Source of the DNA: Thermoproteota archaeon
Lineage (GTDB): Archaea > Thermoproteota > EX4484-205 > JAAOZP01
NCBI GenBank assembly: GCA_049700215.1
Contig: JBNAVT010000001.1
Location: 1 to 64,000, forward strand
Reading direction: 5' to 3'
DNA: 64,000 nucleotides
In this document: positions 18,058 through 36,983 of the stretch, piece after piece
How positions within the stretch are numbered: position 1 is the stretch's first letter
Layout of the letters: every line of letters starts with the position of its first letter
The notes under the pieces: generated by a model
Databases searched by the model: none
What the model saw: the letters and a program-made list of their open reading frames with translations, nothing else
What the model was told of the DNA's origin: nothing
Translations under genes and position numbers: made by a program

Positions 18058-18103
18058 AGTAAACCTTTAATGAAGCGTTAAAAAACAGGGCATTCGTTAA
18101 GGC

Positions 18104-19702
18104 TTAGCTTTTCTCCTCTGTCTTGGGTTTCACTGTTAATATTACTTCGTCGACGCCTATTATCGTCGTAGCCAGTTCCACGGCTGAAACCATCCAGCTT
18201 TTAACTACGAGATAAGGGTCAACCACCTTTCCGTCCAGATCCGCTACTTCCCGGCTGATAGCGTCTATTCCGTATCCCGCGCCATCTTTAGAATGCTTGC
18301 TGTTAAGCAGCGACATCGTTGTTAGAGGCTTCATGCCGACATTTGTAGCAAGGGTTCTTACAAGCGATTCCAGGCTGTCGGCGAAAGCCTCGTATATCAG
18401 TCTATCCTCCTCAGACTGGTTCTCCGCACTTCTCCTCAACGCCCTCACTATCTCAAGCAGCTCCGCGCCGCCGCCGACGACGCGTCTCGGATCCCTGTAT
18501 AGGCTGAGGACTGCTGAGAGTGCGTGTTTAAACTCTCTCTCATACTCTTTTAAAAGATCCTCGTTTACGCTTCTCAAAAGTATTGAAACAGCCTTTGGCT
18601 CGCGGCAGCCTTCTACGAAAACTATTTTCTCGTTTTCGAAAACCTCTTCCCTGACGGTGTCTGCCCTGCCAAGCTTATCCTCAGAAACATCCTCCGGGTC
18701 TGAAACGATCTTTCCATAGGTTGCTCTCTCAAGCCTCTCCATGTCTGACCTTTTCACCCGTCTGACTGCTGTGACGCCGTTCCTGTAGAGGTATTGCTGT
18801 GCAAGCTCGTCTATACCCTTCTGGCAGAAAACAACGTTGGCTCCAGACTTAACTATCCTGTCAACCCTTTCCCTTATCATCTCCTCCTCTTCCCTAATGA
18901 ACCCGCGGAGCTCCTCAGTCGTCTTAACCTCTATTTCAGTCGATATTTCAGTCTTCTTAACCTCCAGAGCGTAGTCTATCAGTGCAATCCTAGCGTCTTT
19001 AACTGTTTTACTCATGTTCGGATGGACGACTTCCTTGTCGACTATAACACCGTTTACAAGCCTGGAGTCTAAAACCTCGTGCCCACGCTTCCTAACTATG
19101 CTCACCCAGTCTATGTCCGCGTAATACCCGCCGTCCCTCTTTTCAACAATTCTTTCAGCAGTGCTCAGAACTATTTCGGCAAGACGTTTCCTCTCGTCTG
19201 GAGAGGAGAAGAAAGTGATCGCCGTTTCAGCAATCCTCTTAAGCTTCTCCCTGTCTGAAAGGTCAACCGGCTTAGCGTCCTTCTCAAGCTTTTCAAGAGC
19301 CTCGGTGAGCGCCTTATTATACCCTCTGACTATTGAAATCGGGCTTATTCCCTGCTTATACAGGCTGTACGCGTTCCTAACTAGGTCGCAGGTTAAAAGT
19401 ATGAGTGAAGTGGTACCGTCTCCAACCTCTTTCTCAAGAGCCTTGGCAGCGTCTATTATTATCTTGCCCACCGGGTGTTCAATACTCGCCTCGCTGAGAA
19501 TAGTTACCCCGGTCTTAGTCACCGTGACGTCTCCGACTGTGCCTACTAGGAGCTTGTTTAAGCCTCTTGGACCATAGGCGGTTCTGACAACCTCGCCTAT
19601 TACGAGCGAGGCTACAATATTGTTTTCATAAGCCTCCTCCTTGCTCCTCCTCACGGTTGTTTCTTTAAGCACTATTGCCGGTCTAGTCTGTTCATAGGCC
19701 AT
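18104..19702 (-). CDS. Thermosome (group II chaperonin) subunit, divergent
   Basis: YGPRGLNK, VGDGTT, CQKGIDE, RRVKRSDMERL. Confidence 0.93.
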   Translation of the reverse strand: MAYEQTRPAIVLKETTVRRSKEEAYENNIVASLVIGEVVRTAYGPRGLNKLLVGTVGDVTVTKTGVTILSEASIEHPVGKIIIDAAKALEKEVGDGTTSLILLTCDLVRNAYSLYKQGISPISIVRGYNKALTEALEKLEKDAKPVDLSDREKLKRIAETAITFFSSPDERKRLAEIVLSTAERIVEKRDGGYYADIDWVSIVRKRGHEVLDSRLVNGVIVDKEVVHPNMSKTVKDARIALIDYALEVKKTEISTEIEVKTTEELRGFIREEEEMIRERVDRIVKSGANVVFCQKGIDELAQQYLYRNGVTAVRRVKRSDMERLERATYGKIVSDPEDVSEDKLGRADTVREEVFENEKIVFVEGCREPKAVSILLRSVNEDLLKEYEREFKHALSAVLSLYRDPRRVVGGGAELLEIVRALRRSAENQSEEDRLIYEAFADSLESLVRTLATNVGMKPLTTMSLLNSKHSKDGAGYGIDAISREVADLDGKVVDPYLVVKSWMVSAVELATTIIGVDEVILTVKPKTEEKS

Positions 19703-19799
19703 TTCGTATCACCTCAGTACTCCTTCCTTTAAAAGACTTTTTAAAAGCTTTTCCTAAGAGACAACATTTATTAGGTTAGTGTTCTTCTTCTGCGCAAGT

Positions 19800-20027
19800 T
19801 TGGGAAAGATCTACGACAGCCGGGTTAAAGGGGTTGCGAGGATGCTGCTGCTTAAATACGGTGATCTCTTCACCAACGATTATTACGCGAACAAGCAGGT
19901 TTTGAGGAAGATCGCGGTTTTCCAGTCTAAGAAGCTTCTGAACAGGGTTGCCGGCTATATTACGTCAGTTAAATCCTCGGAGGGAGGAGGACGGCGGGAG
20001 GAGGTTATTGAGGTTGGAGAAGAGTGA
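19800..20027 (+). CDS. rps17e: 30S ribosomal protein S17e
   Basis: FTNDYYANK, SKKLLNRVAGYIT. Confidence 0.9.
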   Translation: MGKIYDSRVKGVARMLLLKYGDLFTNDYYANKQVLRKIAVFQSKKLLNRVAGYITSVKSSEGGGRREEVIEVGEE

Positions 20028-20391
20028 GTTCCCAATCTTTCTCTCTGTCTTCGACTACGGCTGGTTGAAGAGGGCTCTGAGGGAAGCTGAAGCCTATCTA
20101 AAGGAGTCTAAGAAGGCTTCTCCGCCTTTAAAACTCATATACGCGAGGATGTCAATCCTTTCAAGCAGAATGCTTGTAACCATGCTTTTCCCACCGATGA
20201 GCAAGTATGAGAACGCTAACGTCAGCGAAGAGGCTTCCAACCCTGTTGAGTATAGGCTTCGAAGCCTATACGATAAGGCTCTTGAAAAGGTTGAAAAAAT
20301 ACAGCTTTCAGAGGACGAGGCTGTGGAGATAAGTGATTTCCTGTATAACCTTTCATCCACAATCCTCGAGCAGATTCTCAGCAAAAACTAG
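20014..20391 (+). CDS. Hypothetical helical protein
   Basis: ORF overlapping rps17e stop, host-like codon usage. Confidence 0.6.
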   Translation: MEKSEFPIFLSVFDYGWLKRALREAEAYLKESKKASPPLKLIYARMSILSSRMLVTMLFPPMSKYENANVSEEASNPVEYRLRSLYDKALEKVEKIQLSEDEAVEISDFLYNLSSTILEQILSKN

Positions 20392-20440
20392 CGTGTCAGG
20401 CGCTTGCTTTCAGGTTTAAATAGTTCCTTCAGCATATTTT

Positions 20441-20506
20441 CTCGAATGATGTGAACTGACCTGCTCTGAGAGAACGACTCTATGAAGACCATGCACCTCT
20501 CTGAGG
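20441..20506 (+). ncRNA. C/D box guide sRNA with two 16S rRNA guides
   Basis: C box ATGATGT 20446, D' CTGA 20466, C' ATGAAGA 20482, D CTGA 20501; guides ACTGACCTGCT and CCATGCACCTCT; TTTAAATA upstream, T-run downstream. Confidence 0.85.
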
Positions 20507-20509
20507 TTT

Positions 20510-21103
20510 TCAATCCTGTTTAAAATGGCTGAGTCTCTTCAAGTAGCTGTCTACAATCATTGGCGGCAGCCCGATGTCTATCAGCATATCTCTGAATTCA
20601 TCGAGTGTTTTACCGCCTTCTTTAAGATTCTTCTGAGCGAGGCTTCTCACTGTTTCCCCAATCTCATGGGGGAAAATGATCCATTTCTCAGTTTTCTTAA
20701 CATAGTAGTCTGGCTTCAACGTGCTCCAAGGCTTATAGTATACGGTTGCAACCCTAACCTCTCGAGCACCCTTGGCTTCAAGATGTCTGCGCACTATCTC
20801 CAAGCTTCTACCAGTATCTGCAACGTCGTCAACAACCAGCACCCTCTTCCCGTAAACGTCGACGTTAACATCCTGCAGGATTCTGGGCTCACGGCCTGTT
20901 TTTTTAACATCCTCGTAGAAGGCAACCCTTATGATCCCTATCTCCGGTTTTTCAAACTCGTCTGAAAAAATCCTGAGCGGGACGAGTCCTCCTCTTGAAA
21001 CCCCGATTATGACTTCAGGCGTATATCCTGATTTCAAAACTTTCTCAACGAGCTCCAGCGTGAGCTGGTAGAAATGCTCCCAGCTTATTACTTCGAATTC
21101 CAT
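20510..21103 (-). CDS. Purine phosphoribosyltransferase (HGXPRT-like)
   Basis: GVSRGG, VLVVDDVADTGRSL, WIIFPHE; start reassigned to MEFEVISW. Confidence 0.9.
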   Translation of the reverse strand: MEFEVISWEHFYQLTLELVEKVLKSGYTPEVIIGVSRGGLVPLRIFSDEFEKPEIGIIRVAFYEDVKKTGREPRILQDVNVDVYGKRVLVVDDVADTGRSLEIVRRHLEAKGAREVRVATVYYKPWSTLKPDYYVKKTEKWIIFPHEIGETVRSLAQKNLKEGGKTLDEFRDMLIDIGLPPMIVDSYLKRLSHFKQD

Positions 21104-21167
21104 TCTGGCTTTAAAGCTTAAATGCTCTAAAATAAATGTTTTTATCCCGTTTATCGGCTGAATATCC

Positions 21168-21710
21168 GTGTTGGACCCTGTTCGAAGCATGGATTCGCTG
21201 GGCATGTGCTTCACGCTTCTAATGGTCAACAGCCTCCCGGAGGACTGGGTTAGCCTAACGGCCGAGTTGAAGAAGAATAGGAGAGTTTTCATCCAGTTTT
21301 TCAACCCGGCCTGCCTAGTGAGCGAGCTAATCCCTTTCCTAGCCTATAATGTTCACCAGGCTTTCAAACACGGGTACAACGTGCTCAAAGGCTTTGAGCA
21401 AGAGCTTCTGGTGGCGCTTTACGGGAAGAGGAGCTTCCAGGAGGCGTCATCCACACTCGGAGCCTCGGTTTTACAGCGGGCGGCTATACTCCTTGTTTCA
21501 GAGAGTGCTGCAGTTTTAAAGGAGGCGGTGGCTGCTTTGAAGGAAGAGTTTTCTAAGAGAGGTCTGTCCGTTGAACCCTTCAAGGATGATGAGCAATTGT
21601 TCACATCCTTCTGGAGCAGCCTGCTTTCCAAGAACCTTAACGTTGAGGCGTTGAAGTATTCTGACGTGCTCGAGCTCGTCAAGGAGAGGATAGCGCTTCT
21701 ATACGTTTAA
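21168..21710 (+). CDS. cgi121: KEOPS complex subunit Cgi121
   Basis: IQFFN..AF..G.N....E.ELLVALYG.RSFQEA...G pattern, C-terminal ERIALL. Confidence 0.7.
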   Translation: MLDPVRSMDSLGMCFTLLMVNSLPEDWVSLTAELKKNRRVFIQFFNPACLVSELIPFLAYNVHQAFKHGYNVLKGFEQELLVALYGKRSFQEASSTLGASVLQRAAILLVSESAAVLKEAVAALKEEFSKRGLSVEPFKDDEQLFTSFWSSLLSKNLNVEALKYSDVLELVKERIALLYV

Positions 21711-21832
21711 GTCAGGCTTGAACAGGCTGGGGAGGCGGCTCCGAGGAATTCGGGCTTTGAACGGCTTAAAGAGGCCTTCCTGGAGGCCTGACGGTTGAAA
21801 CCGGGGCTCGCAAGATTAAAATACTAGTTTAC

Positions 21833-22576
21833 ATGCAGAAGAATGCAGCCTTGGAGGCACCGGAAATAGTAGTGGACGTTAAGGAGGTCACTAAGGATTA
21901 TGTTCTGAGGAGCGGTGTTGTGAAGGCTTTGAAAGGGATCGACCTGCAGGTGAAGAGAGGGGAGTACGTGGTTGTGATGGGCCCCTCTGGAAGCGGTAAG
22001 ACGACGCTGTTCAACATGATCGGCGGCTTGGATAAGCCTACGAGCGGAAGCGTTTCCATAGACAGTATAAACTTAGCTAAGATGAATGATCGCCAGCTCG
22101 CATGGGTTAGAAGCAGAAAAATAGGCTACATATTCCAGACTTTCAACTTGATACCTGTGCTTTCAGCCCAGGATAATGTTGCGCTGCCAATGGTCTTCCT
22201 CGGTATAAGCAAGGAGGAGAGGCGTAGGAAGGCTGCTGAGCTTCTTAGCCTAGTAGGCCTGGGGGACAGGCTCAGCCACAGGCCGCAGGAGCTTTCCGGT
22301 GGGCAGCAGCAGAGGGTGGCGATCGCAAGAGCGTTGGCGAACAATCCCTCCATAATACTTGCGGACGAGCCTACGGGCAACCTCGACCTCTCAACCGGGC
22401 TTTCAATAGTTCAGCTGCTATACAGGCTTAAGGTGGAGAGAAACACTACCGTGATATGCGCCACCCACGACCTTAAAATGGTGGACGTGTCTGACAGGCT
22501 TGCATGGCTTAGGGACGGAGTTATAGAGAGGATTGAGGAGAGGACAACAGTAACCCTAACCGCGGAAGAAATATAG
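21833..22576 (+). CDS. ABC transporter ATP-binding protein (LolD/MacB family)
   Basis: [32 protein letters not shown]. Confidence 0.93.
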
Positions 22577-22653
22577 TTTGGGGAAGGTGCTTCATACTTT
22601 TAACCAGGGGGATATGTTTTTATACTGCTTTTCAAAGTTCCATCCGACCCGAA

Positions 22654-22761
22654 ATGAGCGAGGATTTTGGCGAGGAGGAAGAAGAGGAAGAAGAATGGGA
22701 GGAAGAGGAAGAGGACTGGGAGGAAGACTGGGAAGAGGAAGAACTAGAGGAAGAATGGTAG
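22654..22761 (+). CDS. 35-aa hyperacidic Glu/Trp peptide (not in ORF track)
   Basis: MSEDFGEEEEEEEEWEEEEEDWEEDWEEEELEEEW; TTTTTATA about 30 nt upstream; tandem TAG TAA stop; mixed GAA/GAG codons. Confidence 0.65.
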   Translation: MSEDFGEEEEEEEEWEEEEEDWEEDWEEEELEEEW

Positions 22762-22818
22762 TAAGGGCAAAGCTTTTTCTCAAATAGTTTTCAAAAAGTT
22801 TTCCAGGGTTGATACGGA

Positions 22819-24597
22819 TTGGTTAGAGTAGCCGTAATAGACAAGGACTCCTGCAAACCCACGAAGTGTGGAAAACCCTGCAGGAAATACTGCCCAATAG
22901 TTAGGATAGGCCAGGAGGCAATATACTTCGTTGAGGAAGAGAATCCTCCCGTAATAAACGAGTACCTGTGCAGCGGATGCTGCATATGCGTTAAGAAGTG
23001 TCCTTTCAACGCCATATGGGTGGTAAACCTTCCGGACGAGCTTGAGAAGAAGGTTTTCCACAGGTATGGTGTTAACGCTTTCAAGCTCTACGGTTTCCCG
23101 GTTCTCTCTAGGGGGGCTGTTACAGGCATACTCGGCGAAAACGGAATAGGAAAGTCGACGGTGCTGAAGATAATAAGCGGGCTTGTGAAGCCGAACTTGG
23201 GAAGGGTTGGCGAAGAGGTAGGTGTGGATGAAATCCTGTCGTTCCTCAGGGGGAACGTTTCCTTCAGCCTTGTTGAAGATATTTTCAAGGGCAGGGTGAG
23301 ATGCATCTATAAGCCACAGTACTTGGACGATATTCCTAGGATTATCGGCGGTAAAAGCGTCGGGGAAACACTTGAGAAGGTGGATGAGAAGGGGGTTTTG
23401 AACGAGGTATTGGAAAAGCTGGAGCTGGAGAGCATTGTGGAAAATAGGGTGAGCAGTCTAAGCGGTGGAGAGCTGCAAAGGCTGGCAGTTGCAGCAGCCT
23501 TTATGAGGAAGGGCGACGTATACCTGTTCGACGAGCCCTCCAGCTTCCTCGACGTGAAGCAGCGTCTCAAGGTTGCTGAGCTAATAAGCTCTCTGAAGGA
23601 GGATGGTAAGATAGTCGTTGTTGTGGAGCATGACCTCACGCTGCTCGACTATCTTGCTGACTACCTCGTGATACTCTACGGGCAGCCCTCAGTTTACGGG
23701 GTCGTCTCACAGGTTCTCTCAGCACGCGTCGGGATAAACTCCTACCTGGAAGGCTACATAAGGCAGGAGAATATTCGTTTCAGGAGGGACAGGATAAGGT
23801 TCCATGCTCACAGCCTGGCGGAGGAGTCTCCAGCCCTGAAAATGTTCGAATGGCCGTCGATGCAGGTTTCGCTAGGAGGCTTCACTCTTAAGGCTGAGAA
23901 GGGCTTCATAGGGGTGGGTGAGGTAATAGGCATAGCTGGCCCAAACGGGATAGGTAAGACAACTATGCTTAAAGAACTGTTAAAATATTTCTCCGGCGGA
24001 GAATCCTTGTCGGACAGCGATCTGGCTAAGAGGATAGGATACAAGCCGCAGTATGTCTCCGGCCTGTTTAAGGGGGTTGTGGGAGACCTTTTGAAAGAAG
24101 CATACGGCGGTGAGGTGCCTGAGGTTTTTGAAAGCGAGCTGATAAAACCCCTTAAGCTGGACAGGCTTTCTGATAGGCTTGCGGAAACTCTTAGCGGCGG
24201 CGAACTTCAGGCTCTCGCGATAGCAGTAGCTCTTCTGAAGGATTCCCCAATATACTTCTTAGATGAGCCGTGCGCATACCTGGATGTTGAACAGAGGCTT
24301 GTCGTTATACGTGCGATACGCCACACCGTTATGAATAAGAAGGCTTCAGCATTCGTTGTTGAGCACGATATTGCAGCCCTAGCCTTCCTTTCCGACAGGC
24401 TTGTCTTCATCAGGGGTGAGCCCGGTGTCCAGGGGTATGCCTCTGAACCATTGAACGTCGCCGAGGGCATGAATAGTCTTCTCAAGTATCTGGACGTAAC
24501 CCTTAGAAGAGAGCCTGAAAACCTCCGTCCCAGGATAAACAAGAAGGATTCTAAGACAGACAGGCTTCAAAGGGCTCAGGGAAAGTATTACTACTAG
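22819..24597 (+). CDS. Ribosome recycling ATPase ABCE1/Rli1
   Basis: N-terminal Fe-S cysteines CSGCCICVKKCPF, twin ABC domains, RPRINK. Confidence 0.96.
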   Translation: MVRVAVIDKDSCKPTKCGKPCRKYCPIVRIGQEAIYFVEEENPPVINEYLCSGCCICVKKCPFNAIWVVNLPDELEKKVFHRYGVNAFKLYGFPVLSRGAVTGILGENGIGKSTVLKIISGLVKPNLGRVGEEVGVDEILSFLRGNVSFSLVEDIFKGRVRCIYKPQYLDDIPRIIGGKSVGETLEKVDEKGVLNEVLEKLELESIVENRVSSLSGGELQRLAVAAAFMRKGDVYLFDEPSSFLDVKQRLKVAELISSLKEDGKIVVVVEHDLTLLDYLADYLVILYGQPSVYGVVSQVLSARVGINSYLEGYIRQENIRFRRDRIRFHAHSLAEESPALKMFEWPSMQVSLGGFTLKAEKGFIGVGEVIGIAGPNGIGKTTMLKELLKYFSGGESLSDSDLAKRIGYKPQYVSGLFKGVVGDLLKEAYGGEVPEVFESELIKPLKLDRLSDRLAETLSGGELQALAIAVALLKDSPIYFLDEPCAYLDVEQRLVVIRAIRHTVMNKKASAFVVEHDIAALAFLSDRLVFIRGEPGVQGYASEPLNVAEGMNSLLKYLDVTLRREPENLRPRINKKDSKTDRLQRAQGKYYY

Positions 24598-24624
24598 TGT
24601 TTTTCAAAAAGGTTAAGTTTTTAA

Positions 24625-25341
<717 letters not shown>

Positions 25342-25377
25342 GTCCAACTGGTTTATTGATAATCTGCAAAATCGGAA

Positions 25378-25543
25378 CTATTTTCTAAAAGTTTTCTCCA
25401 TCCCATAGCTATAAGTTTTTGAAACCAAGCATCCTGTAAAACTTAACCGGAGCCCTGTTCTCTTTCAACACATTAAGCCTAACGGTTTTCACACCCCTAG
25501 CCTTCAGAGTTTTCAAGCTTTCAACAACCAGCTTCCTGCCTAG
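25378..25543 (-). pseudogene. C-terminal fragment of GNAT acetyltransferase
   Basis: LGRKLVVESLKTLKARGVKTVRLNVLKENRAPVKFYRMLGF; begins exactly at palindrome 25541; A-run frameshift near end. Confidence 0.7.
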
Positions 25544-25552
25544 CGCGTGCTT
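25541..25552. repeat. Dispersed palindrome TAGCGCGTGCT(T)
   Basis: Direct reading; junction of two gene fragments. Confidence 0.7.
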
Positions 25553-25553
25553 T

Positions 25554-25775
25554 TTGAAAATTCTCTATACGGTGCCTCAGAATTCGAAATATACATGGAG
25601 GGCTTCTCTTTACTATGGTGGGAAGCAGATAGGCCTCGGCATGGTTAGGATTTACATCTCCACAGAGCCTGAACTCTTGACGGGTAAAGTACTGGTAGGC
25701 AGGAAGGCTTTAAACAATAAAATAAGGTCGTTGATAATGAATATGCTGAAAAGGCGAGTTCTTCTAGAGTTTTAG
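25554..25775 (+). pseudogene. Gene fragment between two palindromes, possibly clan AA aspartic protease-like C-terminus
   Basis: VLVGRKALN resembles LLGRDVLN motif; no convincing start. Confidence 0.35.
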
Positions 25776-25786
25776 CACGCGCTAAA
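25771..25786. repeat. Dispersed palindrome TTTAGCACGCGCTAAA
   Basis: Direct reading. Confidence 0.75.
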
Positions 25787-25828
25787 CCCTTGTATAAACC
25801 TGTTCGACATCTTATGGCTGTTAAATAA

Positions 25829-25858
25829 AACTTTTAATAGCACGCGCTATTAAAAGTT
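25829..25858. repeat. 30-bp near-perfect palindrome AACTTTTAATAGCACGCGCTATTAAAAGTT
   Basis: One mismatched pair; ends 2 nt before ATG 25861. Confidence 0.85.
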
Positions 25859-25860
25859 GG

Positions 25861-26631
25861 ATGAAAAAAGAAGGAACCAAAGTTTTAACACTTATGGTTC
25901 TCAGTTTTCTTCTTATCCCTTTTTTTAATTCTGACATACGGATTAGGTATAGATGCAGAAACTGTAGCGTAGGCTCTTCTCTATCTTTAGAAGTGGGTTC
26001 CACAGCTCCATTTGTCTGGAAGAAAATGAGAATACTTAAAGGTGAAGAAAGGAATATGCTTATCTCCAACATAATGAAGACCAATGACTATAAAATGGTG
26101 GCTCTCAGCTTGGAAAAACTAGGTCTTGAACCCCTCTTCGAAGAGGCTTGGGCAGTAGAGGTGTTAGAGGCTCGTGATGCGATACTGACCAGAACTTTAG
26201 GGGTTAGCGTTGAATTTCTTCGTAAATCTGATGGTTTTTCGCTTATCGCAATTTTCGTTCTGGAACCATATGCAAAATCGCTTGTTTACAGGTTTAACAA
26301 GGAGACGAACATGCTCAATCTGGTGAGTGGTACGATCGGCGGAAAGAACATCATCTTACCTTCAGAGGGACAAACTCTTTCATCATGCCCACCTTGCGAA
26401 GTTCTTGTGAGCGAGTGTGTATCGATCGATCTTGCCTGTGTTCTATTGCAATGCTATGACTGTTATGATGTATGCGAGATACCCACACCGGTTTGTGTCG
26501 GCTGCATCATCTTCTGGTGCGGCTTTGGTTCACTTTATCTTTGTTGCAACAGTCAGCTGGTCTGCAAACCTTGCGACCCGGCAAGTTGTTATTATGCGGA
26601 ATGCATGGGTTGTCCAGGATGTGGCGGGTAA
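25861..26631 (+). CDS. Secreted precursor with Cys-rich C-terminus (halocin C8-like bacteriocin candidate)
   Basis: Signal peptide, about 150-aa pro-region, 18 Cys in last ~82 aa with repeated CxxC. Confidence 0.6.
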   Translation: MKKEGTKVLTLMVLSFLLIPFFNSDIRIRYRCRNCSVGSSLSLEVGSTAPFVWKKMRILKGEERNMLISNIMKTNDYKMVALSLEKLGLEPLFEEAWAVEVLEARDAILTRTLGVSVEFLRKSDGFSLIAIFVLEPYAKSLVYRFNKETNMLNLVSGTIGGKNIILPSEGQTLSSCPPCEVLVSECVSIDLACVLLQCYDCYDVCEIPTPVCVGCIIFWCGFGSLYLCCNSQLVCKPCDPASCYYAECMGCPGCGG

Positions 26632-26653
26632 AAAGCCTCTGTGGAGCAAGTGA

Positions 26654-27088
26654 ATGAGAACATTGAATGAATACCTTCAAAAAATTTCTGAATGGAAGAA
26701 ATTTGCAGTGTGGAGTATAATTACCCTAATTCCGTTAATCCTTCTCTGGTTCATAATACTCGACGAGAACATGTTCATGAGCCTGATCAGGAATCAGGGT
26801 TCCAGGGTTCCACTGATCATCGTGGCTATAGCCGCTTCAACATCGTGGACCTATGGAGTATTGAAAAGGCTTAGACTTTATACCAGAGTCCTCCAGATCA
26901 AGCTATTACCGGGCAGGCTTATGGTCAGCATAGTGTTCTTCACACTATTGCTAACGGCGAAAGCAATATACTCGTGGCAAACTCAAAACTGGGGGCTGCT
27001 CGTAGGAGGTATTTTCTTCGCAACATTCTGCTTCCTACTTCTCTGGAAACTAGTTTACGGTCATCCTGAAGAAAAAGCTAAATCCTAG
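26654..27088 (+). CDS. 4-TM membrane protein, candidate immunity protein
   Basis: Four hydrophobic helices; directly downstream of Cys-rich precursor. Confidence 0.55.
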   Translation: MRTLNEYLQKISEWKKFAVWSIITLIPLILLWFIILDENMFMSLIRNQGSRVPLIIVAIAASTSWTYGVLKRLRLYTRVLQIKLLPGRLMVSIVFFTLLLTAKAIYSWQTQNWGLLVGGIFFATFCFLLLWKLVYGHPEEKAKS

Positions 27089-27102
27089 TAGCGCGTGCGC
27101 TA
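27089..27102. repeat. Dispersed palindrome TAGCGCGTGCGCTA
   Basis: Immediately after stop codon 27088. Confidence 0.75.
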
Positions 27103-27254
27103 TAAACCACTTTCACCCAACCCTCTCTCTTAAGCGTTTACTTACCGTAGTCTTTAAACACTTTCCCAGAGGATATGTAGGCATGCTGGGCGGGTACTTA
27201 ACTGGGGAGCGTGCTGGAAAGCCTTATCTTAAGCCTACGCTCAGCATATTCAGA

Positions 27255-28011
27255 ATGGTTAAGCATGCTCTGAGGAGCCTGCTTTTAACAGTATTCTTCT
27301 CAGCATTCCTCGCGCTTCTCCCGCCCTGTTTAAGCCACCCGTTCAACAGGCCCACAGCCTTGGGGTCGCCTTCATCATACTCCTGGAGCAGCCTGAGCAC
27401 GAATACCGTGACGATAACCTACTCTATCAGCGAGGAAGCGTGGTGCGGCGGGACAGGCTACCTCCACATTGACGCTAGACCCGGCCAGGGAACCTACGGC
27501 GACACTAAAGACGCTACTGCAAGGATAACAGTGCCGGAGGGCCTCGTAGCAGGAGTTTACGTTTGCGGCGATGACCGCAACCCTCCTCCAAACGGCTGGA
27601 CGGTTCAGGATAAGTATCTCAGGATTGAGGTCGACGGGGCTAAGGTTTTCGAGCTCGGTAAGGAGTACTGGTGGGCGAAATGCTACTCTAAGGCCACTGT
27701 TCTAGGCCCAGGTACGCACGAGGTTAAGCTGACCATAGGCATCACTGTTAAGGTTTCCTCGAACTACGAGGAGCGCGACATAGCCTACGCTGCGATGGAT
27801 ATCAGGCTAGCGCGCGCTATCCTTTAAGGGAAAGTACTTCGCCGATGATGAATGGAAAGATCAGTTTAAGGACGTTAGATATGGAATTCCTGTTGCCACT
27901 TTCATTAAAGTTGATGCTTTACCGAAGGCTTTGGCAGAGAAGAATTTGGAAGGGATCATCGATGTTGCAGTAGATCCCGACTTTTATGAAAATCCCAACT
28001 ATCAGCCATGA
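27255..28011 (+). pseudogene. Internally deleted secreted protein: N-terminal part (to 27827) and out-of-frame C-terminal part (27820-28011)
   Basis: Signal peptide MVKHALRSLLL..; after palindrome 27808 a start-less 63-aa frame SFKGKYFADDEW..YQP*. Confidence 0.6.
27808..27819. repeat. Dispersed perfect palindrome TAGCGCGCGCTA
   Basis: At frame-switch junction. Confidence 0.8.
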
Positions 28012-28708
28012 TCACTTGGAGAATAAAGCACCCATCCTCTTCTCCTTAATTTCTTCTCTTCCTTTCGTGAAAGAAAGATGTAGTTTATTGTGTGATTTGG
28101 ATGGAAAGAATAGTATTGATATCCAGTATCCTCTACCCACCTATTTATTTTCTTCACGGCCGAATCAAGGTTAAGAAAGTTGTGAAAAGTATAAATTTCA
28201 ATAACATGCCCTTCACCCTTAAACTTAAAATGTACCTCGAAGCAATAACCCCACTTCTCTTCGGGCTTCAAGCTCGGGGGGATCTAATCCAGTAGGAGCC
28301 TTCCCTTTCCACTCTAACATTTTCTCAACTACATTAGTAGGCTGGAAGAAACCCCTAGAGATTCTACCAAGCTTCTTAACTAAGCCCGCTCCAACGCCTT
28401 CTTCTATTACGATATCCCAAATTTGGACGAGGACTCTTCGGATCAAAGCAGGCTAATTCGTAATCTATCTCAGCGATCTTCTTTTTCATATACCTTGCCT
28501 CATGCTTCTTTATACGTTTTTTCAAAAGGGCACCCTGAGGGGTGTCCCATAACCTATCTTCCCAGTTCACTGCATAATCTATTTCTCCATTGAAAATCTT
28601 CTTAAGGATTTCTTCAGAGTTTAAATCAGAGTAGTCTTTGAAGAAATCCATCTCGCGAAGGAAATCGATTGAGCTTATGAAGCGTTTCTTTAGCTTAGAG
28701 TTCATCAC
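28002..28708 (-). pseudogene. Hypothetical protein split by two frameshifts
   Basis: Three overlapping ORFs (28376-28708, 28225-28446, 28002-28271) join into one reading if 2-nt deletions are restored. Confidence 0.7.
28170..28289 (+). repeat. 120-bp segment duplicated in inverted orientation at 60864-60984
   Basis: Identical apart from a 1-nt and a 2-nt indel. Confidence 0.92.
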
Positions 28709-28799
28709 GTAAAAAATTGTTGAGTAGGTTCTTAAGCATAACTGTCTGCACTATTACTTCCATCTCAATAAAGCAATTGCGGTAGTAGAAGTTAAGAAG

Positions 28800-28894
28800 C
28801 GGGCCCGCTGGGATTTGAACCCAGGCTCTCCGGCTCCGCAGGCATGCGCAAGGCTATCCTTTCGACGCCTTTATCCTGGCTTGGCCACGGGCCC
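28800..28894 (-). tRNA. tRNA-Arg(GCG) with 19-nt intron at 29/30 (28844-28862)
   Basis: BHB with central helix GCGT/GCGC, bulges CGA/ATG, inner AAGG/CCTT; spliced arm TCGGC-CTGCGGA-GCCGG. Confidence 0.9.
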
Positions 28895-28921
28895 TTTAAA
28901 ATTCTGGCTGCAGGGGCTTAT

Positions 28922-30820
28922 TTAAACTTCATTCAGCTTCTCAATACCTGCTATTTCAAACGCGTTGTCCATGGTTATCACGAAGGCTTTAACCAGCGCC
29001 AGCCTGTCCATTCTAATGCCCTCGCCCGTTATCACGGAGCATTTCTCGTAGAAGCTGTTGAACACGTCTGCTAGATGCCTCATGTATACTGCGATAATGT
29101 TCAGCGCCAGTGTTTCACTAGCCATGTTTAAAACCCATGAGAATTTGCCTATCTGCTTAACCAGCTCCAGTTCTTCAGGAGTGTTGAAGGAGGCCTCGGT
29201 CAAACTGTTCACGTCGACACCCGCTTTCTCAAGTATTCTGCATCCCCGCGCGTAAGTGTATTGAAGGTAGGGGGCAGTGTCACCCTCCAGCCTTGTGGCG
29301 TCCTTCACGTCGAAAACTATTATGTTGTTCCTGTCAGTCTTGAAAAGAGAGTATCTTATGGATGCGACGCTCAGATGAGTGCTAACGCTCCTAACCCACT
29401 CCTCATCCCTAGAAGGGTTTCTCCTCCGAGTCTCCTCGTAAACCTTCTGGAACACCGTCTTAAGAAGCTCGTTGGCGTTGAAGACTATTCCCTTCCTACC
29501 GGACATGTGGACCATTCTCCTCCCCTTTAACTCCTCGACCCCCGTCAGCTCGCTCGCCGTCTCCCCAGAGAGGGCAACGACCTCATAGAGATACGGAAGA
29601 TACTTTTTCCCAGAGGGGGCTCCAAGCTTCCTAAGAGCGTGCTCAACCACTTTCTGCGGGTACTCCTGCCTCTTGTCGACAACCGTTATTGCTACGTCCG
29701 CCCCAGGGTAATCATACTCCTCCCCGTCCCAATGTGTTGTTAAAAGAATCCTCCCGTTCGGCTGCTCAATCCACTTCTTCACTCTGAACCTTTTCGGCGT
29801 TAAGCCGAGCTTCCAGGCCGCGTAAGCAATATCCTTTCCAACGTAGGTGGCTGTGCCGTCTGACCTGACGAGAACCTCGTCGGGTGCCTTAAGCCTGCTA
29901 AACTCCTCAATATCCCTGAGCCTGATCATTAGACACCCCTTGTTCTCACCCTCCTTCTCCAAGTAGGCTTCACCCCTGCTTCTCAACTCGTTCACAGCCC
30001 ACTCGAATATCCCTGACCTCAAAACATCCGTCTCCCAGTTAAGCAGATCATAATATATTCTGAAGCTCCAGGCTGTTTCAAGCTGGCATTCAACAACCTT
30101 CTCCGAGAACATTCTTGCGAAGCCAGCCACCTCGTTCCCACCCTCCTCAATCCTCCTTATTATCTCGCTCCTCAGCCTCCTCAGCTCCTCGTCCTTCTGG
30201 ATCTTCTCACTATGCTCGGCGTAAACCCTACCGCTGTACTCGTCGAACCCCATGCCCTCCGGGGGCTCCAAAGGAACTTTCATAAAGTAGTGGGCAAGAA
30301 TGTTATCAGCAACCTGTGAACCACTGTCGTCAATATAGTTGACAACCATTACCTCGTGGCCCAGGAACCTTAGAAGCCTCGCCAAAACGTCTCCGATGAC
30401 GGCGTTCCTCAGCGTTCCAACGTGCAGAGCCTTATTCGGGTTCGAATTAGTATGCTCTATAAGTATTTTCCTCCCGGCGACAGGAAACCTCCCGTAATCG
30501 CCGCGTTTGGAAAGAGCCTCGTTCAACACTCTGACGGAGTACTTCACGGGGTCGAAGCGGAAATTAATGAAGCCGTTCACGTTTTCAACATTCTTCAAAA
30601 CCTCCAGCTTGCTGACGTCTATGGCTGCTATTATCCTGTCAGCGGCCTCTAAAGGGTTTAAACCGTGTTTCCTAGCTAGGTCGAAGGCTACGGGGGTCGC
30701 TAGGTCTCCGAGCTCGGGGCTAGGTGGCTCCTCAATCCTCGCCCTAGTGATAAACCCCAGTGTCTCCAACACTTGGTCCACGTGAACCCTTATCCTTTCA
30801 GCCTCCTCCAGAAACCCCAT
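28922..30820 (-). CDS. argS: Arginyl-tRNA synthetase
   Basis: EHTNSNPNKALHVGTLRN, MSGRKG, PYLQYTYAR. Confidence 0.96.
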   Translation of the reverse strand: MGFLEEAERIRVHVDQVLETLGFITRARIEEPPSPELGDLATPVAFDLARKHGLNPLEAADRIIAAIDVSKLEVLKNVENVNGFINFRFDPVKYSVRVLNEALSKRGDYGRFPVAGRKILIEHTNSNPNKALHVGTLRNAVIGDVLARLLRFLGHEVMVVNYIDDSGSQVADNILAHYFMKVPLEPPEGMGFDEYSGRVYAEHSEKIQKDEELRRLRSEIIRRIEEGGNEVAGFARMFSEKVVECQLETAWSFRIYYDLLNWETDVLRSGIFEWAVNELRSRGEAYLEKEGENKGCLMIRLRDIEEFSRLKAPDEVLVRSDGTATYVGKDIAYAAWKLGLTPKRFRVKKWIEQPNGRILLTTHWDGEEYDYPGADVAITVVDKRQEYPQKVVEHALRKLGAPSGKKYLPYLYEVVALSGETASELTGVEELKGRRMVHMSGRKGIVFNANELLKTVFQKVYEETRRRNPSRDEEWVRSVSTHLSVASIRYSLFKTDRNNIIVFDVKDATRLEGDTAPYLQYTYARGCRILEKAGVDVNSLTEASFNTPEELELVKQIGKFSWVLNMASETLALNIIAVYMRHLADVFNSFYEKCSVITGEGIRMDRLALVKAFVITMDNAFEIAGIEKLNEV

Positions 30821-30879
30821 TCTGCAGACGGTTTTGGAAGCATAACAGGGTTAATAAGTATTAAAGGGGGATAAACCGG

Positions 30880-31407
30880 CTACTGGCCTTTCAGCCTTTC
30901 CCTCAGCCTCCACTTGGAGGCCAGCCTCTCAAAATCCTTCTTGAAAGCCCTTCTGAGATAGGGCACGTAGAATTCTATTTCTTCCCGCGTCATGTATTGA
31001 AACTGGTACTCGCCCTCGTAGGGAGAAGGCTCTCCAGCTCTCGTTATGAACTCTATGTGCATAAAGGGCTCTCCCTTTCTGACAACCACCGGCTCCCTCT
31101 CGTTGTTCAGGTTCACGATCTCCAGTGCAAGCCTTCCGATAAACCCGCTGTGAACCTTGGCTGCGTTTAAAAAGGACAGGCCTGCTCTCCCGTAACGGCT
31201 TTTAGCAGTAAGGTGCGCGACAATGTTCGGCGGTGTGAAAACTATCTCGTTAGAAATAACGTTCTTATGCTCCAAGTATTGAAGCTTAACATCGTCCATC
31301 ACCGTCAAAACATACCCGTCTCCATCCATGTACTTCTCGTCGAACGGGTGTATTATCGGTAGTTTCTTCACCATCTTCAGCAGCTCGCTTTTCCCCAGTA
31401 TGCTCAT
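30880..31407 (-). CDS. dCTP deaminase/dUTPase family protein
   Basis: AKSRYGRAGL, VHSGFIGRLALEI, PYEGEYQ. Confidence 0.85.
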   Translation of the reverse strand: MSILGKSELLKMVKKLPIIHPFDEKYMDGDGYVLTVMDDVKLQYLEHKNVISNEIVFTPPNIVAHLTAKSRYGRAGLSFLNAAKVHSGFIGRLALEIVNLNNEREPVVVRKGEPFMHIEFITRAGEPSPYEGEYQFQYMTREEIEFYVPYLRRAFKKDFERLASKWRLRERLKGQ

Positions 31408-31428
31408 CGGCCTCTATGCTCCGGGGCA

Positions 31429-32325
31429 CTAATATAAATTTTCAAGGAGCCGTTTTAACGCTCTAACCCTGTTTTCAACCTCGCTAATGCTGAAGTCGAA
31501 GAATGATCCTGTTTTCTCAGCCTTTATGCTTGAGCAGGCTGACGCGTAGAGGCTTGACTCTAACAGGCTTCCTGTTTCGAGATGCTTCGCCAGGAAAACA
31601 GCCGCGTAAACGTCCCCTGCCCCAGTCGGGTCAAGCGTCTCCACCTCAACAATAGGCGTGTAGAAGCATCCCTGCTTGTAAACAATCATGGAGCCGTGTT
31701 CAGAGTTAGTCAGCTCAACAATCATGCCCGGGTTGATTTCGAAAAGCTCCTTAACGTCGCGATTCAGAAAGAAAAACTGCTCGTCAACATTCATGTGAAC
31801 ATAATCCACCCTGCTGAGAACATTATCCGGGAGCATTCTCTTAACATGGTGAACACGCCCGTCGACACCGCTGGTCCTGATGAACCCCTGTGCGTCGATA
31901 GAGATTCTGCAGCCTGCTTCCTCAAGCTCCTTGAAAACCCCGTGGTCAACCTCGTTTAAAACAGGCGTAACGTGTACAGCGTCAAAGCCCTCGAGCCTAC
32001 TCCTGTCGACAAATATCCTTCTAGAAGGCTCGCCGGAGGTCTTCTGGAGCCTAGTGGAATCCCGGTAAATGTTTTCAAAAAGAATGCTTTTCTCAAGCTC
32101 TGTGGCGTGGACCTCAACCCCCCTCCGCTTCAGATGCTCCACCCACTCCGGGTTCATATCGGGCCCGTAGGCTGTGAAAAGAACTGTTTCAACACTCATT
32201 CGGGAGAGGCTGAGCGAAGAGTAGAATCCTCCCCCACCCATGTAACTGTAGGCTCCGCCACGGCTCCTGTTAACGTCTATCGTTAAAGCACCTATCACGC
32301 CTATTCTGAGACGCCTCCTGGACAT
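31429..32325 (-). CDS. PfkB family carbohydrate kinase
   Basis: GGGGFY N-terminal motif, DPTGAGDVYAA. Confidence 0.9.
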   Translation of the reverse strand: MSRRRLRIGVIGALTIDVNRSRGGAYSYMGGGGFYSSLSLSRMSVETVLFTAYGPDMNPEWVEHLKRRGVEVHATELEKSILFENIYRDSTRLQKTSGEPSRRIFVDRSRLEGFDAVHVTPVLNEVDHGVFKELEEAGCRISIDAQGFIRTSGVDGRVHHVKRMLPDNVLSRVDYVHMNVDEQFFFLNRDVKELFEINPGMIVELTNSEHGSMIVYKQGCFYTPIVEVETLDPTGAGDVYAAVFLAKHLETGSLLESSLYASACSSIKAEKTGSFFDFSISEVENRVRALKRLLENLY

Positions 32326-32503
32326 TTAGACGCAGAATCAGACTAAGCCCCCTATTTAACCACTATCGGGACAATGGGTCTTACTAAAAACTTAAAAACC
32401 TGTTTGCCGAAAAACAATGGTTAAACGTTTTCTGCTCCTAGAGCCTAGGGTTAGGGCAAAGTGTATAAGGCAGTGTTCTCAACTTTTCCCGAGGCTGATG
32501 AGA

Positions 32504-33073
32504 ATGGTGAAAACAAGTAGGATTGTTGAAATAAGGTGGCACGGCAGGGGAGGCCAGGGTGTTGTGCTTGCAAACCAGCTCGTAGGCATGGCTCTCTTCG
32601 AAGAGGGGAAAAACATTCAGACTTTCCCGGACTTCGGCCCAGAGAGGACAGGTGGTCCAGTAAGGGGTTACACACGCTTCTCAGAGGAGCCCATAGATAT
32701 ACATTCCTCAGTATACGAGCCCGACATATTGGCAGTGATAGACCCCTACTTGGCTGAGGACCCGAGCGTCTACGCCGGCCTCAAACCGGAGGGTGTTGCA
32801 GTGGTTAACTCCGCTAAAACCCCGGGAGCCCTCAGGGGGAAGCTGGGTTTAAACGTTAAGACTCTCGGCGTCGTAGACGCAGCCAGGATCTCGAAGGAGG
32901 TCTTCGGAACCTATGTTTTCAACACGCCTGTCCTAGGGGGACTGGTGAGGCTCACAGGCATAGTCAGGCTTGAGACGCTTGAAAAACTGTTTTTAAGCAG
33001 GTTCCCAGGCAGAGTTGGGGAGCTTAACGTGAAAATGCTTAAGAGGGGATATGAGGAGGTGGCGGCCCAATGA
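32504..33073 (+). CDS. porG: Pyruvate/2-oxoacid:ferredoxin oxidoreductase gamma subunit
   Basis: HGRGGQG, FGPERTGGPV. Confidence 0.92.
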   Translation: MVKTSRIVEIRWHGRGGQGVVLANQLVGMALFEEGKNIQTFPDFGPERTGGPVRGYTRFSEEPIDIHSSVYEPDILAVIDPYLAEDPSVYAGLKPEGVAVVNSAKTPGALRGKLGLNVKTLGVVDAARISKEVFGTYVFNTPVLGGLVRLTGIVRLETLEKLFLSRFPGRVGELNVKMLKRGYEEVAAQ

Positions 33074-33348
33074 GCACGACCGTAAGCTGGAGGGAGATAG
33101 ATCTGGGTGGAAGCGTAGCCGGCGGGACGAGTGAGAAGTATAAGACGGGTAACTGGAGGGTTGAGAAACCCGTTATAGACTACGAGAAGTGCGTCAGATG
33201 CCTGATATGCTGGCTCTACTGCCCTGAGCCCGCGATAATCAGGAACGGGAACGAGGTTAAAATAGACTATGACTATTGCAAGGGCTGCGGCATATGTGCA
33301 GAGGAGTGTCCGAGGAAGGCGATAACGATGGTTCCGGAGGAGATTTAG
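33070..33348 (+). CDS. porD: Pyruvate/2-oxoacid:ferredoxin oxidoreductase delta subunit
   Basis: TGNWR, two CxxCxxCxxxCP motifs. Confidence 0.93.
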   Translation: MSTTVSWREIDLGGSVAGGTSEKYKTGNWRVEKPVIDYEKCVRCLICWLYCPEPAIIRNGNEVKIDYDYCKGCGICAEECPRKAITMVPEEI

Positions 33349-33349
33349 G

Positions 33350-34546
33350 ATGATGGCTGAAGCTTTAGCAAGGCAGCACAGGATCGCGCTGACCGGGAAC
33401 GACGCTGTGGCCTACGCTGTTAAACAGGCTAACGTCGACGTGATAAGCGCATACCCGATAACTCCACAGACATTCGTCGTCGAGACGCTTTCGAGATACG
33501 TTTACGACGGCGAGTTGAACGCCAAGTTCATAAACGTGGAGTCTGAGCACTCAGCCCTCTCCGCGGTGATAGGGGCCTCGCTAGCCGGGGCGAGAGCATT
33601 CACGGCGACAGCAAGCCAGGGCCTCGCCTACATGTGGGAGGCGCTCTACGCGGCTTCAGGATTAAGGCTGCCGATAGTCATGGCTTTAGCGGCAAGAGCA
33701 TTATCCGCACCAATAAATATTCACAACGATCATTCAGACTTCTTCGGAATGAGGGACGCGGGCTGGGTAATGTTCAACGGCGAGGAGGCGCAGGAGACCT
33801 ACGACCTCACAATCATGGCTTTCAAAATCGTTGAAGACCCTAGAGTACTCCTGCCGGTAGTGGTCTCGTACGACGGCTTCATAGTGTCACACGCGATAAC
33901 AAACTTCTACGCTTTAAACGACGACGTTGTCAAGGAATTTCTGGGAGTGAGAACAACCGGGCCCAAGATAAACCCGGACGACCCGAGAACCTTCGGCGTC
34001 CTAGCTTTGCAAGACTCCTACTACGAGTTTAAAAGGCAACAGTATGAGGCGATGGAGAACGCTAGGCAAGTAATACAGGAAGTGTTTAAAAAATACGGGG
34101 AGATTTCTGGGAGAAACTACAAGCCCCTGAAAGAATACATGACGAGCGACGCGGAAACCTGCATAGTCGCGATGGGAAGCACCGTGGGAACAGCAAGACA
34201 CGCAGCCAAGATGCTGAGGGAAGAAGGCGAGAAAGTAGGCGTCGTAGGAATACTACAATACAGACCATGGCCGATTAAGGAGGCTGAACAACTATTCTCA
34301 AGGTTCAAAAGGATAATAATCATGGAGAAGGTTATGAGCCCAGGAGCAAGAGCAGGGCCTGTCTACGAGGACATCGCTTCAACACTATACCCCAACCACA
34401 ACGTTAAAATGGTGGACTTCACATACGGCCTTGGTGGAAGAGACATCTCGACGCAAGGGATCATTGAGATATACAGGAGGGGGAAGGAGCTTATCGACAA
34501 GGGTAAGACGGACAGAACCCAGTTCTACGGGGTGAGGGGAGAATGA
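33350..34546 (+). CDS. porA: Pyruvate/2-oxoacid:ferredoxin oxidoreductase alpha subunit
   Basis: YPITPQT, ESEHSA, TATASQG, GLGGRD. Confidence 0.94.
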   Translation: MMAEALARQHRIALTGNDAVAYAVKQANVDVISAYPITPQTFVVETLSRYVYDGELNAKFINVESEHSALSAVIGASLAGARAFTATASQGLAYMWEALYAASGLRLPIVMALAARALSAPINIHNDHSDFFGMRDAGWVMFNGEEAQETYDLTIMAFKIVEDPRVLLPVVVSYDGFIVSHAITNFYALNDDVVKEFLGVRTTGPKINPDDPRTFGVLALQDSYYEFKRQQYEAMENARQVIQEVFKKYGEISGRNYKPLKEYMTSDAETCIVAMGSTVGTARHAAKMLREEGEKVGVVGILQYRPWPIKEAEQLFSRFKRIIIMEKVMSPGARAGPVYEDIASTLYPNHNVKMVDFTYGLGGRDISTQGIIEIYRRGKELIDKGKTDRTQFYGVRGE

Positions 34547-35944: not shown

Positions 35945-36125
35945 CACACTAGTATACGAGTTTCAACACGGATGACTTGAACAAGGGAGCAACGTTATTC
36001 GGAGTTTAATTTTTCAAATCGATTCGCATGGGTGCTTAAAAACTTCTCGATTCACGTTTAGCGGGATGAAAATATGCTGTTATTCGAAAAACTTATTTAA
36101 AACCTTAACCCTTATTAATCCAGCT

Positions 36126-36969: not shown

Positions 36970-36983
36970 AAGCGCGCGCGCTT
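36970..36983. repeat. Palindrome AAGCGCGCGCGCTT
   Basis: Direct reading. Confidence 0.65.

Follow-up and report, generated by a model that had tools for sequence, protein, structure and literature searches.

The first 64,000 nucleotides (nt) of contig JBNAVT010000001.1, from a Thermoproteota archaeon (assembly GCA_049700215.1), contain a short palindrome, TA(GC)nTA, of 12-14 nt with n = 3-5. Five copies of this motif occur within a 3.5-kb island of variable DNA, which extends from the TIM gene to a tRNA-Arg gene and is different in every relative. Here, "the window" means the whole 64,000-nt stretch, and positions are those of the window except where a relative is named. An original prediction for this DNA had read the motif, written as TAGC(RY)nGCTA, as a mark of gene-breakage junctions.

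The gene set of the window is archaeal and includes RadA, thermosome, RLI, archaeal ribosomal proteins, and an SmAP with an Lsm_C domain, as determined by Pfam scans. Encoded at 28922-30820 on the minus strand, the arginyl-tRNA synthetase shares 88-95% identity with those of eight metagenome-assembled genomes (MAGs; L001-L007 and L010), which are labeled Candidatus Brockarchaeota, Thermoproteota, or similar, and 68-77% with those of eight more distant MAGs within L008-L016; no relative was identical, and the loci compared therefore do not include the genome of the window itself. The source is an uncultured, Brockarchaeota-like archaeon from a hot spring. The window and its eight close relatives together provided a 217-kb sample of the clade.

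The motif and its copies in the window

All six positions that had been predicted to carry a copy were found to carry the motif, but the site at 25541 is only a half copy. The copies, for which no strand is assigned, are as follows.

25541-25550: half copy TAGCGCGTGC, then TTTTT, at the head-to-head junction (J1) of a GNAT fragment and the next small gene
25773-25784: full copy TAGCACGCGCTA
25838-25849: full copy TAGCACGCGCTA, within a 30-nt near-perfect palindrome (25829-25858), 11 nt upstream of the ATG at 25861
27089-27102: full copy TAGCGCGTGCGCTA, beginning 1 base past the stop codon of a 144-residue gene
27808-27819: full copy TAGCGCGCGCTA, at the truncation point of a secreted-protein gene (junction J2)
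53562-53573: full copy TAGCGCGCGCTA, 62 nt past the 3′ terminus of a tRNA gene with an intron, within 550 nt of intergenic DNA that lies outside the part of the window covered by relatives

Successive copies are spaced by 232, 65, 1251, and 719 nt. The n = 2 form of the motif, TAGCRYRYGCTA, has four matches in the window, compared with 0.03 expected, and none of 100 shuffles reached this number; the n = 3 form, TAGCRYRYRYGCTA, has one match, compared with 0.01 expected. A count against a Markov null, which the original prediction had proposed for the whole genome, was obtained for the window, where GCGCGCGC is the top over-represented 8-mer under a third-order model. Across the 217 kb, TA is present on both sides of 10 of the 59 GC-rich alternating runs of at least 8 nt (75% G+C cut-off), whereas about 0.2 such cases were expected from the TA frequency of 0.056. 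The window alone contains ten alternating runs of at least 8 nt with at least 80% G+C, six of which begin after TA; GC runs within conserved genes (RLI, PFOR alpha, and thermosome) are without TA flanks. The consensus of the flanks is tttTA(GC)nTAaaa, T-rich to the left of TA and A-rich to the right.

The copies are largely extragenic. Ten of 11 TA-flanked copies lie outside open reading frames (ORFs) of at least 70 residues, which cover 80-91% of the sequences, and the copies are located 0-52 nt past stop codons or 11-92 nt ahead of starts. As had been predicted for intact housekeeping ORFs, conserved genes were found to contain no copy with n of at least 1. With n = 0, the motif (TAGCGCTA) is present at 4728 inside a beta-CASP gene, and about one such match is expected by chance. 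The conserved blocks of the window carry no copy between their genes, and neither do its ribosomal-protein operons.

The two orientations originally ascribed to the core appear to be single CpG-to-TpG/CpA changes at different core positions. In the A/T core variants GCACGCGC, GCGCACGC, and GCGCGCAC, the substituted base sits at a different place, and the variants look like transitions of an ancestral (GC)n, which is the simplest explanation of these sequences. The further variants that had been listed are a mixed group: those at 35765 and 36972 are (GC)5 tracts without TA flanks, and the one at 53408 coincides with the first bases of a predicted tRNA intron. The sequence CGCTATAGCG, considered as a form made of abutted ends, was rejected, as both of its matches lie in coding DNA and are chance-like.

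A mosaic island between the TIM and tRNA-Arg genes

Comparison with relatives by blastn delineated two conserved blocks, at approximately 16800-25540 and 28797-35490. The alignments with relatives run up to 25328-25540 and resume at 28790-28800, and window positions 25541-28796 have no DNA-level match in any relative. In six genomes (L001, L008, L009, L011, L012, and L014), the gap between the TIM and tRNA genes is just 26-53 nt, and in the remaining genomes it is occupied by 1.3-8.8 kb of differing mosaic DNA, including partly decayed accessory genes (GNAT, DUF362, and methyltransferases). The features of the island in the window are listed below.

25381-25540, minus strand: 3′ half of a GNAT acetyltransferase gene, cut at 25540 and also frameshifted near its end
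25547-25775, plus strand: segment S1, a small gene of an 84-143-residue family with one frameshift (phmmer, tblastn)
Between the 25773 and 25838 copies: segment S2, 53 nt, 30% G+C
25861-27088, plus strand: segment S3, encoding a Cys-rich 256-residue protein and a 144-residue membrane protein, both apparently intact
Segment S4, plus strand: 152 nt of upstream DNA and a secreted-protein gene (27255-27827), 3′-truncated
28002-28750, minus strand: frameshifted pseudogene of a 234-residue protein (tblastn, three frames, against the intact gene at L006 19861-20565)
28799-28894, minus strand: tRNA-Arg(GCG) with an intron (ARAGORN intron option), whose 3′ end faces the island and forms its right border

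The G+C content of the segments varies from 30 to 54%, and their contents are unrelated. The fragment bracketed by the 25541 and 25773 copies, which had been noted in the original prediction, is the small gene S1. Its family gave 11 phmmer matches (E of 0.001 or less), and tblastn with P0015, P0020, and P0023 matched it in two frames as far as their C-termini. The stop codon of S1, TAG, is formed by the first three bases of the 25773 copy and closes the gene at its natural C-terminus. The S3 proteins were aligned with the homologs P0012, P0009, and P0010, and the C-terminal residue of P0010 coincides with that of the window protein. All genes of S1, S3, and S4 lie on the plus strand, packed with motif copies at, or 1 nt past, their stop codons. 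Homologs of neighboring cassette genes, P0003 and P0009, share the locus-tag prefix of one MAG (longest contig 7,050 nt for P0003 and 31,160 nt for P0009), which suggests that these homologs of adjoining genes are on different contigs.

Five of the nine ends of genes or gene fragments in the island lie within 3 nt of a copy, a number that was reached in none of 200,000 random placements (mean 0.24). When J1 was counted as one event, four of eight ends lay at copies, and again none of 200,000 placements reached this value.

Several possible origins of the island were rejected. No blastn match to 25541-28796 was found in phage or plasmid collections, which argues against a viral or plasmid source, and a comparison of 25 island proteins with PADLOC gave just weak matches, for two proteins from relatives, which does not support a defense island. 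Integration targeted to tRNA genes, of the SSV/pNOB8 type, was rejected since 25300-28789 contains no repeat of the tRNA-Arg region longer than 12 nt, and no integrase was found. A scan for arrays of clustered regularly interspaced short palindromic repeats (CRISPR), for which three or more occurrences of an 18-mer and a minimum of two spacings of 50-90 nt were required, detected none in the window or in 25 loci; its single match, in L018, is an 18-nt tandem repeat, and the only trace of such a system is a Cas6 fragment (see below).

Some neighboring features of the island were also recorded. The intron-containing tRNA genes at 28799-28894 and 53370-53500 were missed by default ARAGORN and by Rfam, and were found with the intron option; the tRNA-Arg(GCG) gene at the first of these sites lacks an intron in five relatives, and the predicted 42-nt intron of the second begins with AGCACGCGCGCT at position 53408. 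Part of the island pseudogene is covered by a 122-nt inverted duplication (28170-28289 and 60865-60984; 98% identical, with 95 nt exact). In L006, a further insertion of about 6.4 kb (14400-20770) lies between the TIM and GNAT genes and encodes an 824-residue, highly acidic protein and a 635-residue protein with weak TGT-like and metallophosphatase matches.

Gene breaks at the motif

The truncation that had been proposed for the GNAT gene at 25541 is borne out by both the Pfam profile and the relatives. The fragment corresponds to positions 73-116 of the 116-position PF00583 profile, and six relatives align with it to 25540, beyond which their sequences go on into GNAT motif A, which is conserved. 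L005 and L010 have the intact gene, of 161 residues. Alignment of the flanks to these homologs, as had been proposed, showed that no motif-like sequence is present at the break position in relatives whose GNAT gene continues or is intact. A diverged GNAT continuation behind the motif is not claimed, as identity falls to approximately the level of optimized random alignments. The homology of S1 begins at the GTG at 25547, and hence only TAGCGC is certainly extra at J1.

The secreted-protein gene is indeed broken at 27808, as had been predicted, but it is 3′-truncated and not merely shifted out of frame. Homology stops at 27809, inside the motif copy, and the last residues of the window protein, ARAIL, together with the stop codon, are encoded by the motif and the bases downstream of it. 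The homologs run on with ...MDIRLEGGG... for 43-149 further residues, and the missing 3′ part was found nowhere in the window or the loci. This truncated protein, including the tail that the motif encodes, is listed on three contigs. In another MAG, a homolog of the secreted protein is split into two adjacent ORFs (P0006 and P0007), indicating that this gene family decays repeatedly.

Two further cases were found in L007. The match to a methyltransferase gene, which is intact in L004, breaks at ...ATTGAC|GCGCGCGT, after which come 83 nt of DNA with no match, in which TAGCGTGCTA occurs, and then the tRNA gene; no motif-like sequence is present at this point in the relative where the gene continues. 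A full copy in the second island of L007 precedes, by 5 nt, a stretch homologous to the last 68 residues (250-317) of a protein that has 292 residues in the window. A motif copy of this island, at 3587, lies in the approximately 3.2 kb enclosed by an inverted repeat (527-1319 and 4488-5246), the arms of which are about 800 nt in several pieces and 82-97% complementary.

In the window, the second variable island begins after the PFOR beta gene at 35490, and contains two GC tracts.

35765-35774, no strand: (GC)5 tract without TA flanks, just before the Cas6 C-terminal fragment
36972-36981, no strand: (GC)5 tract without TA flanks, 28 nt past the stop codon of ORF 36066-36944

The cas6 gene that had been placed directly after the 27808 copy does not exist there; a Cas6 C-terminal fragment was found 8 kb away, at 35762-35944, where it starts right after the first of these tracts. 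The fragment matches PF10040 (E = 1.2e-5; profile positions 51-89 of 89) and TIGR01877 (162-200 of 200), and the frames upstream of it have no Cas6 match. It is a weak case of a motif-linked break.

Motif copies in related genomes

The motif recurs in the islands of relatives: L004 and L007 each have two copies, and L001 and L010 three to four each. In L002, L003, and L005, the cores are 6 nt at most, and none was found in the distant relatives within L008-L016. Three orthologous sites are retained in L001 and L010 in flanks that are 94% identical; at one of them, the L001 and L010 cores differ by substitutions or by a two-base slip. A two-gene unit in these two genomes, encoding a DUF4013 protein and a methyltransferase, is bounded by orthologous copies. 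Closely paired copies are present in L010 (17814 and 17878) as they are in the window (25773 and 25838). A 273-bp segment of L004 has 15-nt inverted ends, and the window segment 25541-25784 (244 bp) has perfect inverted ends of 11 nt. Recurrence in MAG records of four accession prefixes (L001, L004, L007, and L010), including orthologous sites, makes an artefact of a single assembly unlikely.

Literature searches with the motif strings returned only papers on unrelated subjects, as judged by title and abstract, and no paper naming the motif was found. No such motif is mentioned in literature listings on archaeal MITEs (miniature inverted-repeat transposable elements) and IS630, or in the matching passages of PMC13343696. 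A search on transposases and mobile elements of Brockarchaeota returned, among the papers listed, none mentioning the group.

Hairpin potential and internal similarity

Folded as DNA, the hairpins of seven of eight copies were no better than those of shuffled sequences (-1.1 to -4.2 kcal/mol). The 25838 copy alone forms a strong hairpin (-11.3 kcal/mol, z = -6.0); it is also flanked by two TATA-like AT-rich boxes. For 25535-25790, a stretch of 256 nt that includes the whole 244-nt segment, folding gave z = -0.12. A hairpin-based function was rejected. The weak hairpins argue against the functions of attC-like sites, repetitive extragenic palindromic (REP)-like elements, and terminator hairpins, and for recognition of duplex DNA.

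The two motif-bounded segments, one from the window (244 nt) and one from L004 (273 nt), have no internal similarity (z = -0.9 and -0.06), and no second copy of 25541-25784 was found in the window or the loci. The lack of a shared interior, together with the identity of S1 as a gene, makes a single MITE family unlikely. TA is present on both sides of the copies, and a site that is itself palindromic yields apparent inverted ends without further cause.

A proposed break-and-join site and its possible mechanism

These findings are best accommodated, in our view, by a lineage-specific site at which duplex DNA is broken and joined, and which bounds cassette-like gene segments in flexible islands across this Brockarchaeota-like genus. 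This interpretation is a tentative one, to which we assign a probability of roughly 0.4. Break-and-join is favored because the site bounds co-oriented, tightly packed, and unrelated segments, and because it abuts truncated genes whose relatives are without it. The locations of the copies, their exact coincidence with the ends of genes and fragments, their restriction to variable DNA, their conservation at orthologous positions, and their weak hairpins are direct observations, from which we infer the mechanism as a whole.

The more specific proposal that an undescribed archaeal break-and-join system acts on, or creates, the minimal duplex palindrome TA(GC)nTA is doubtful. Such a system may consist of a trans-acting recombinase or nuclease with an unusually small site, or of end-joining through a self-complementary GC linker, and it may assemble, shuffle, and truncate cassettes, needing neither hairpin-type sites nor a linked integrase or transposase. 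In the interpretation favored above, the duplex palindrome would be recognized by a dimeric enzyme whose gene lies elsewhere, and breakage would take place within the self-complementary GC core. Any two broken sites could then be rejoined, regenerating one palindrome between unrelated segments, as in the chain S1|S2|S3|S4, and rejoining in a shifted register would change n. Where a broken site was occasionally joined to a break of the ordinary kind, a partial or whole copy would be left beside a truncated gene, as might have occurred in the GNAT, secreted-protein, and L007 methyltransferase genes. CpG transitions would afterwards erode the core.

A number of observations weigh against this interpretation. 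No transposase, integrase, other recombinase, Y1 enzyme, or nuclease candidate was found among 79 window ORFs and 72 variable-region proteins (67 of the latter from relatives). The conserved flanks amount to just about 5 nt per side, far below the arms of known site-specific recombinases. The partners of the GNAT and methyltransferase junctions have no motif in relatives, and these events were therefore not conservative, site-by-site recombination. Neither an "empty site" nor a circular form was seen. The proposal that the motif marks breakage junctions holds for GNAT, the secreted-protein gene, and the two L007 cases, but not for the copies at 27089, 25773, and 25838, which are not at breaks; the first two of these adjoin natural gene ends. 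A deletion in L002 at TGCGCG was rejected as a motif junction and classed as ordinary, because TGCGCG is native to L004 and L005, and the ends of the 122-nt duplicated fragment (28170-28289 and 60865-60984) carry no motif. Across genomes, two of the approximately 28 runs outside conserved genes are located no more than 1 nt from a breakpoint of nucleotide-level homology, compared with approximately 0.3 expected by our own estimate, a modest association that is marginal by itself. The sample of the clade is only about 217 kb.

Alternative explanations

None of the three mechanisms offered in the original prediction is proven; a recombination site for cassettes fits best, and specific evidence speaks against the IS630 footprint and the repair linker. 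It is unlikely that the copies are the termini or excision footprints of a TA-targeting, cut-and-paste element of the IS630/Tc1 type and of non-autonomous derivatives with passenger genes. Full palindromes would then be abutted end remnants between duplicated TA, and truncations would result from insertion with adjacent deletion. Such elements would account for the TA flanks of 10 of 59 GC-alternating runs (about 0.2 expected), and the joining of a specific end to a random target is an outcome of transposition; IS630 elements are moreover reported in archaea (PMC13343696). The inverted ends of the 244-bp window segment (11 nt) and the 273-bp L004 segment (15 nt) point in the same direction, but they follow automatically from a self-palindromic site, and the two segments are dissimilar inside, S1 being a gene of a conserved family and not the body of a MITE. 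No transposase was found in the window or among the 72 variable-region proteins, copies lie exactly at natural stop codons, and footprints of 8-10 nt exceed the 2-3 nt per end that are usual for Tc1/mariner. Somewhat less likely again is a native intergenic cis signal, such as an operator, terminator-like punctuation, or a Z-DNA-prone element, whose coincidence with breaks would be secondary, the palindrome being fragile or serving as an 8-12-nt microhomology for template switching. Its extragenic location, 0-52 nt past stops or 11-92 nt ahead of starts, its retention at three sites that are orthologous between L001 and L010, its flanks rich in T and in A, and the TATA-like AT-rich boxes on either side of the 25838 copy are all consistent with a signal of this kind. 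However, the distances to starts and stops are not constant, the hairpins of seven of the eight folded copies are at shuffle level, and the motif is missing from the intergenic DNA of the conserved blocks and the ribosomal-protein operons of the window. It is also absent or nearly absent from the close relatives L002, L003, and L005, and absent from all distant ones (L008-L016), and partial copies adjoin truncated genes whose counterparts in relatives have no such sequence.

Filler DNA from double-strand-break repair is quite improbable. Broken ends would receive a TA(GC)m tail, and self-complementary tails would anneal and be sealed as TA(GC)nTA. The joining of unrelated segments and truncated genes through the motif, the variation of n from 3 to 5, the partial copies at two junctions (TAGCGC at J1 and GCGCGCG in L007), and the lack of a recombinase nearby would all be explained in this way. 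Yet random breaks would seldom fall at natural stop codons, as two of the boundaries do, or 11 nt ahead of a start, as a third does, and the T-rich and A-rich flanks beyond TA are left unexplained; moreover, we know of no enzyme that adds a tail of the TA(GC)m type. All of the sequences are metagenome-assembled, and an artefact of assembly, library preparation, or binning was also considered, but this can hardly be the cause: copies occur under four accession prefixes, including orthologous positions in 94% identical flanks, the truncated protein with the motif-encoded tail is found on three contigs, and 12 nt is too short for a false join in k-mer assembly.

Comparison with known systems

If the motif is a break-and-join site for cassettes, its closest functional likeness, by analogy, is to integron cassette arrays. 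The two have in common mostly promoter-less, co-oriented genes, palindromic sites at or just past stop codons, arrays without a nearby integrase, and unrelated contents; co-oriented cassettes that each end in a site are represented here by S1, S3, and S4. The attC sites of integrons are imperfect palindromes of about 55-140 nt, which act as folded single strands and have conserved R and L boxes. Here, in contrast, the site is 12-14 nt long, perfect, and a poor hairpin former, genes are also truncated at the site, and no IntI-type tyrosine recombinase or Phage_integrase match was found among the 79 window ORFs and 72 variable-region proteins. Clusters of attC sites without an integrase (CALINs) are reported in archaeal MAGs (PMC9668308).

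Short palindromic recombinase sites that flank diverse modules, with the recombinase encoded elsewhere, are also a feature of the Xer-dependent pdif modules of Acinetobacter plasmids. A pdif site consists of a pair of conserved arms of 11 bp with a spacer of 6 bp, whereas about 5 nt are conserved per side here and the core length is variable. With IS630/Tc1-mariner elements, MITEs, and their footprints, the motif shares TA on both sides, a palindromic remnant, and disrupted genes, but it has no transposase, no common interior, and a longer "footprint" in the approximately 217 kb searched. REP sequences and bacterial interspersed mosaic elements (BIMEs) are likewise short GC-rich palindromes past stop codons, some of them paired 50-70 nt apart. 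REPs are stable hairpins of 20-40 nt that occur throughout conserved intergenic DNA and are associated with RAYT transposases; the present copies differ in their weak hairpins, in their confinement to variable DNA in what was examined, and in the absence of a Y1 transposase. An AT-flanked, alternating C/G palindromic core is also found in the sites of hairpin-telomere resolvases, including the proposed fused-telomere scars of Borrelia, and the reverse reaction of these enzymes can fuse unrelated ends, leaving a palindrome beside gene fragments. The resolvase sites (N15 TelN, phiKO2 TelK, and Borrelia ResT) require an inverted repeat of tens of bp, but extended symmetry (30 nt) is seen in only one of six window copies (25838), and there is no resolvase-like match.

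Other features of the window

Several further features of the window were recorded. The cbf5 gene (DKCLD/TruB/PUA) is split into overlapping ORFs in different frames (52282-52566 and 52502-53281), which could be due to a frameshift or to a bulge-helix-bulge intron; an intron of the latter kind occurs in the cbf5 pre-mRNA of Crenarchaeota. The gene for ribosomal protein S11 (54998-55432, minus strand) is inverted between the plus-strand genes for S13 and S4 and the gene for RNA polymerase subunit D, and its borders carry no motif. A URO-D-like gene is split and 5′-shortened (39270-39653 and 39732-40379), and corresponds to one 452-residue ORF in L005. A cluster at 7602-15622 encodes a TFIIB-zinc-ribbon protein, a T2SSE-type ATPase (626 residues), several proteins with no family match, and a HerA/DUF87 ATPase (601 residues), and may, from its gene content, be a pilus or DNA-transfer module.

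Implications

The building and turnover of flexible islands are poorly known in archaea beyond the model groups. In several species of this lineage, the points at which unrelated segments and broken genes meet are marked, with single-base precision, by a palindrome of 12 nt. If an enzyme lies behind the motif, this would be among the smallest cassette-joining sites known, and would provide a handle on gene flow in Brockarchaeota. If the palindrome is instead a fragile or regulatory one, it would provide a clean example from nature of rearrangement driven by a short sequence of alternating G and C. In either case, the boundaries of islands and the junctions of pseudogenes in these genomes can be marked by a simple search for the motif.

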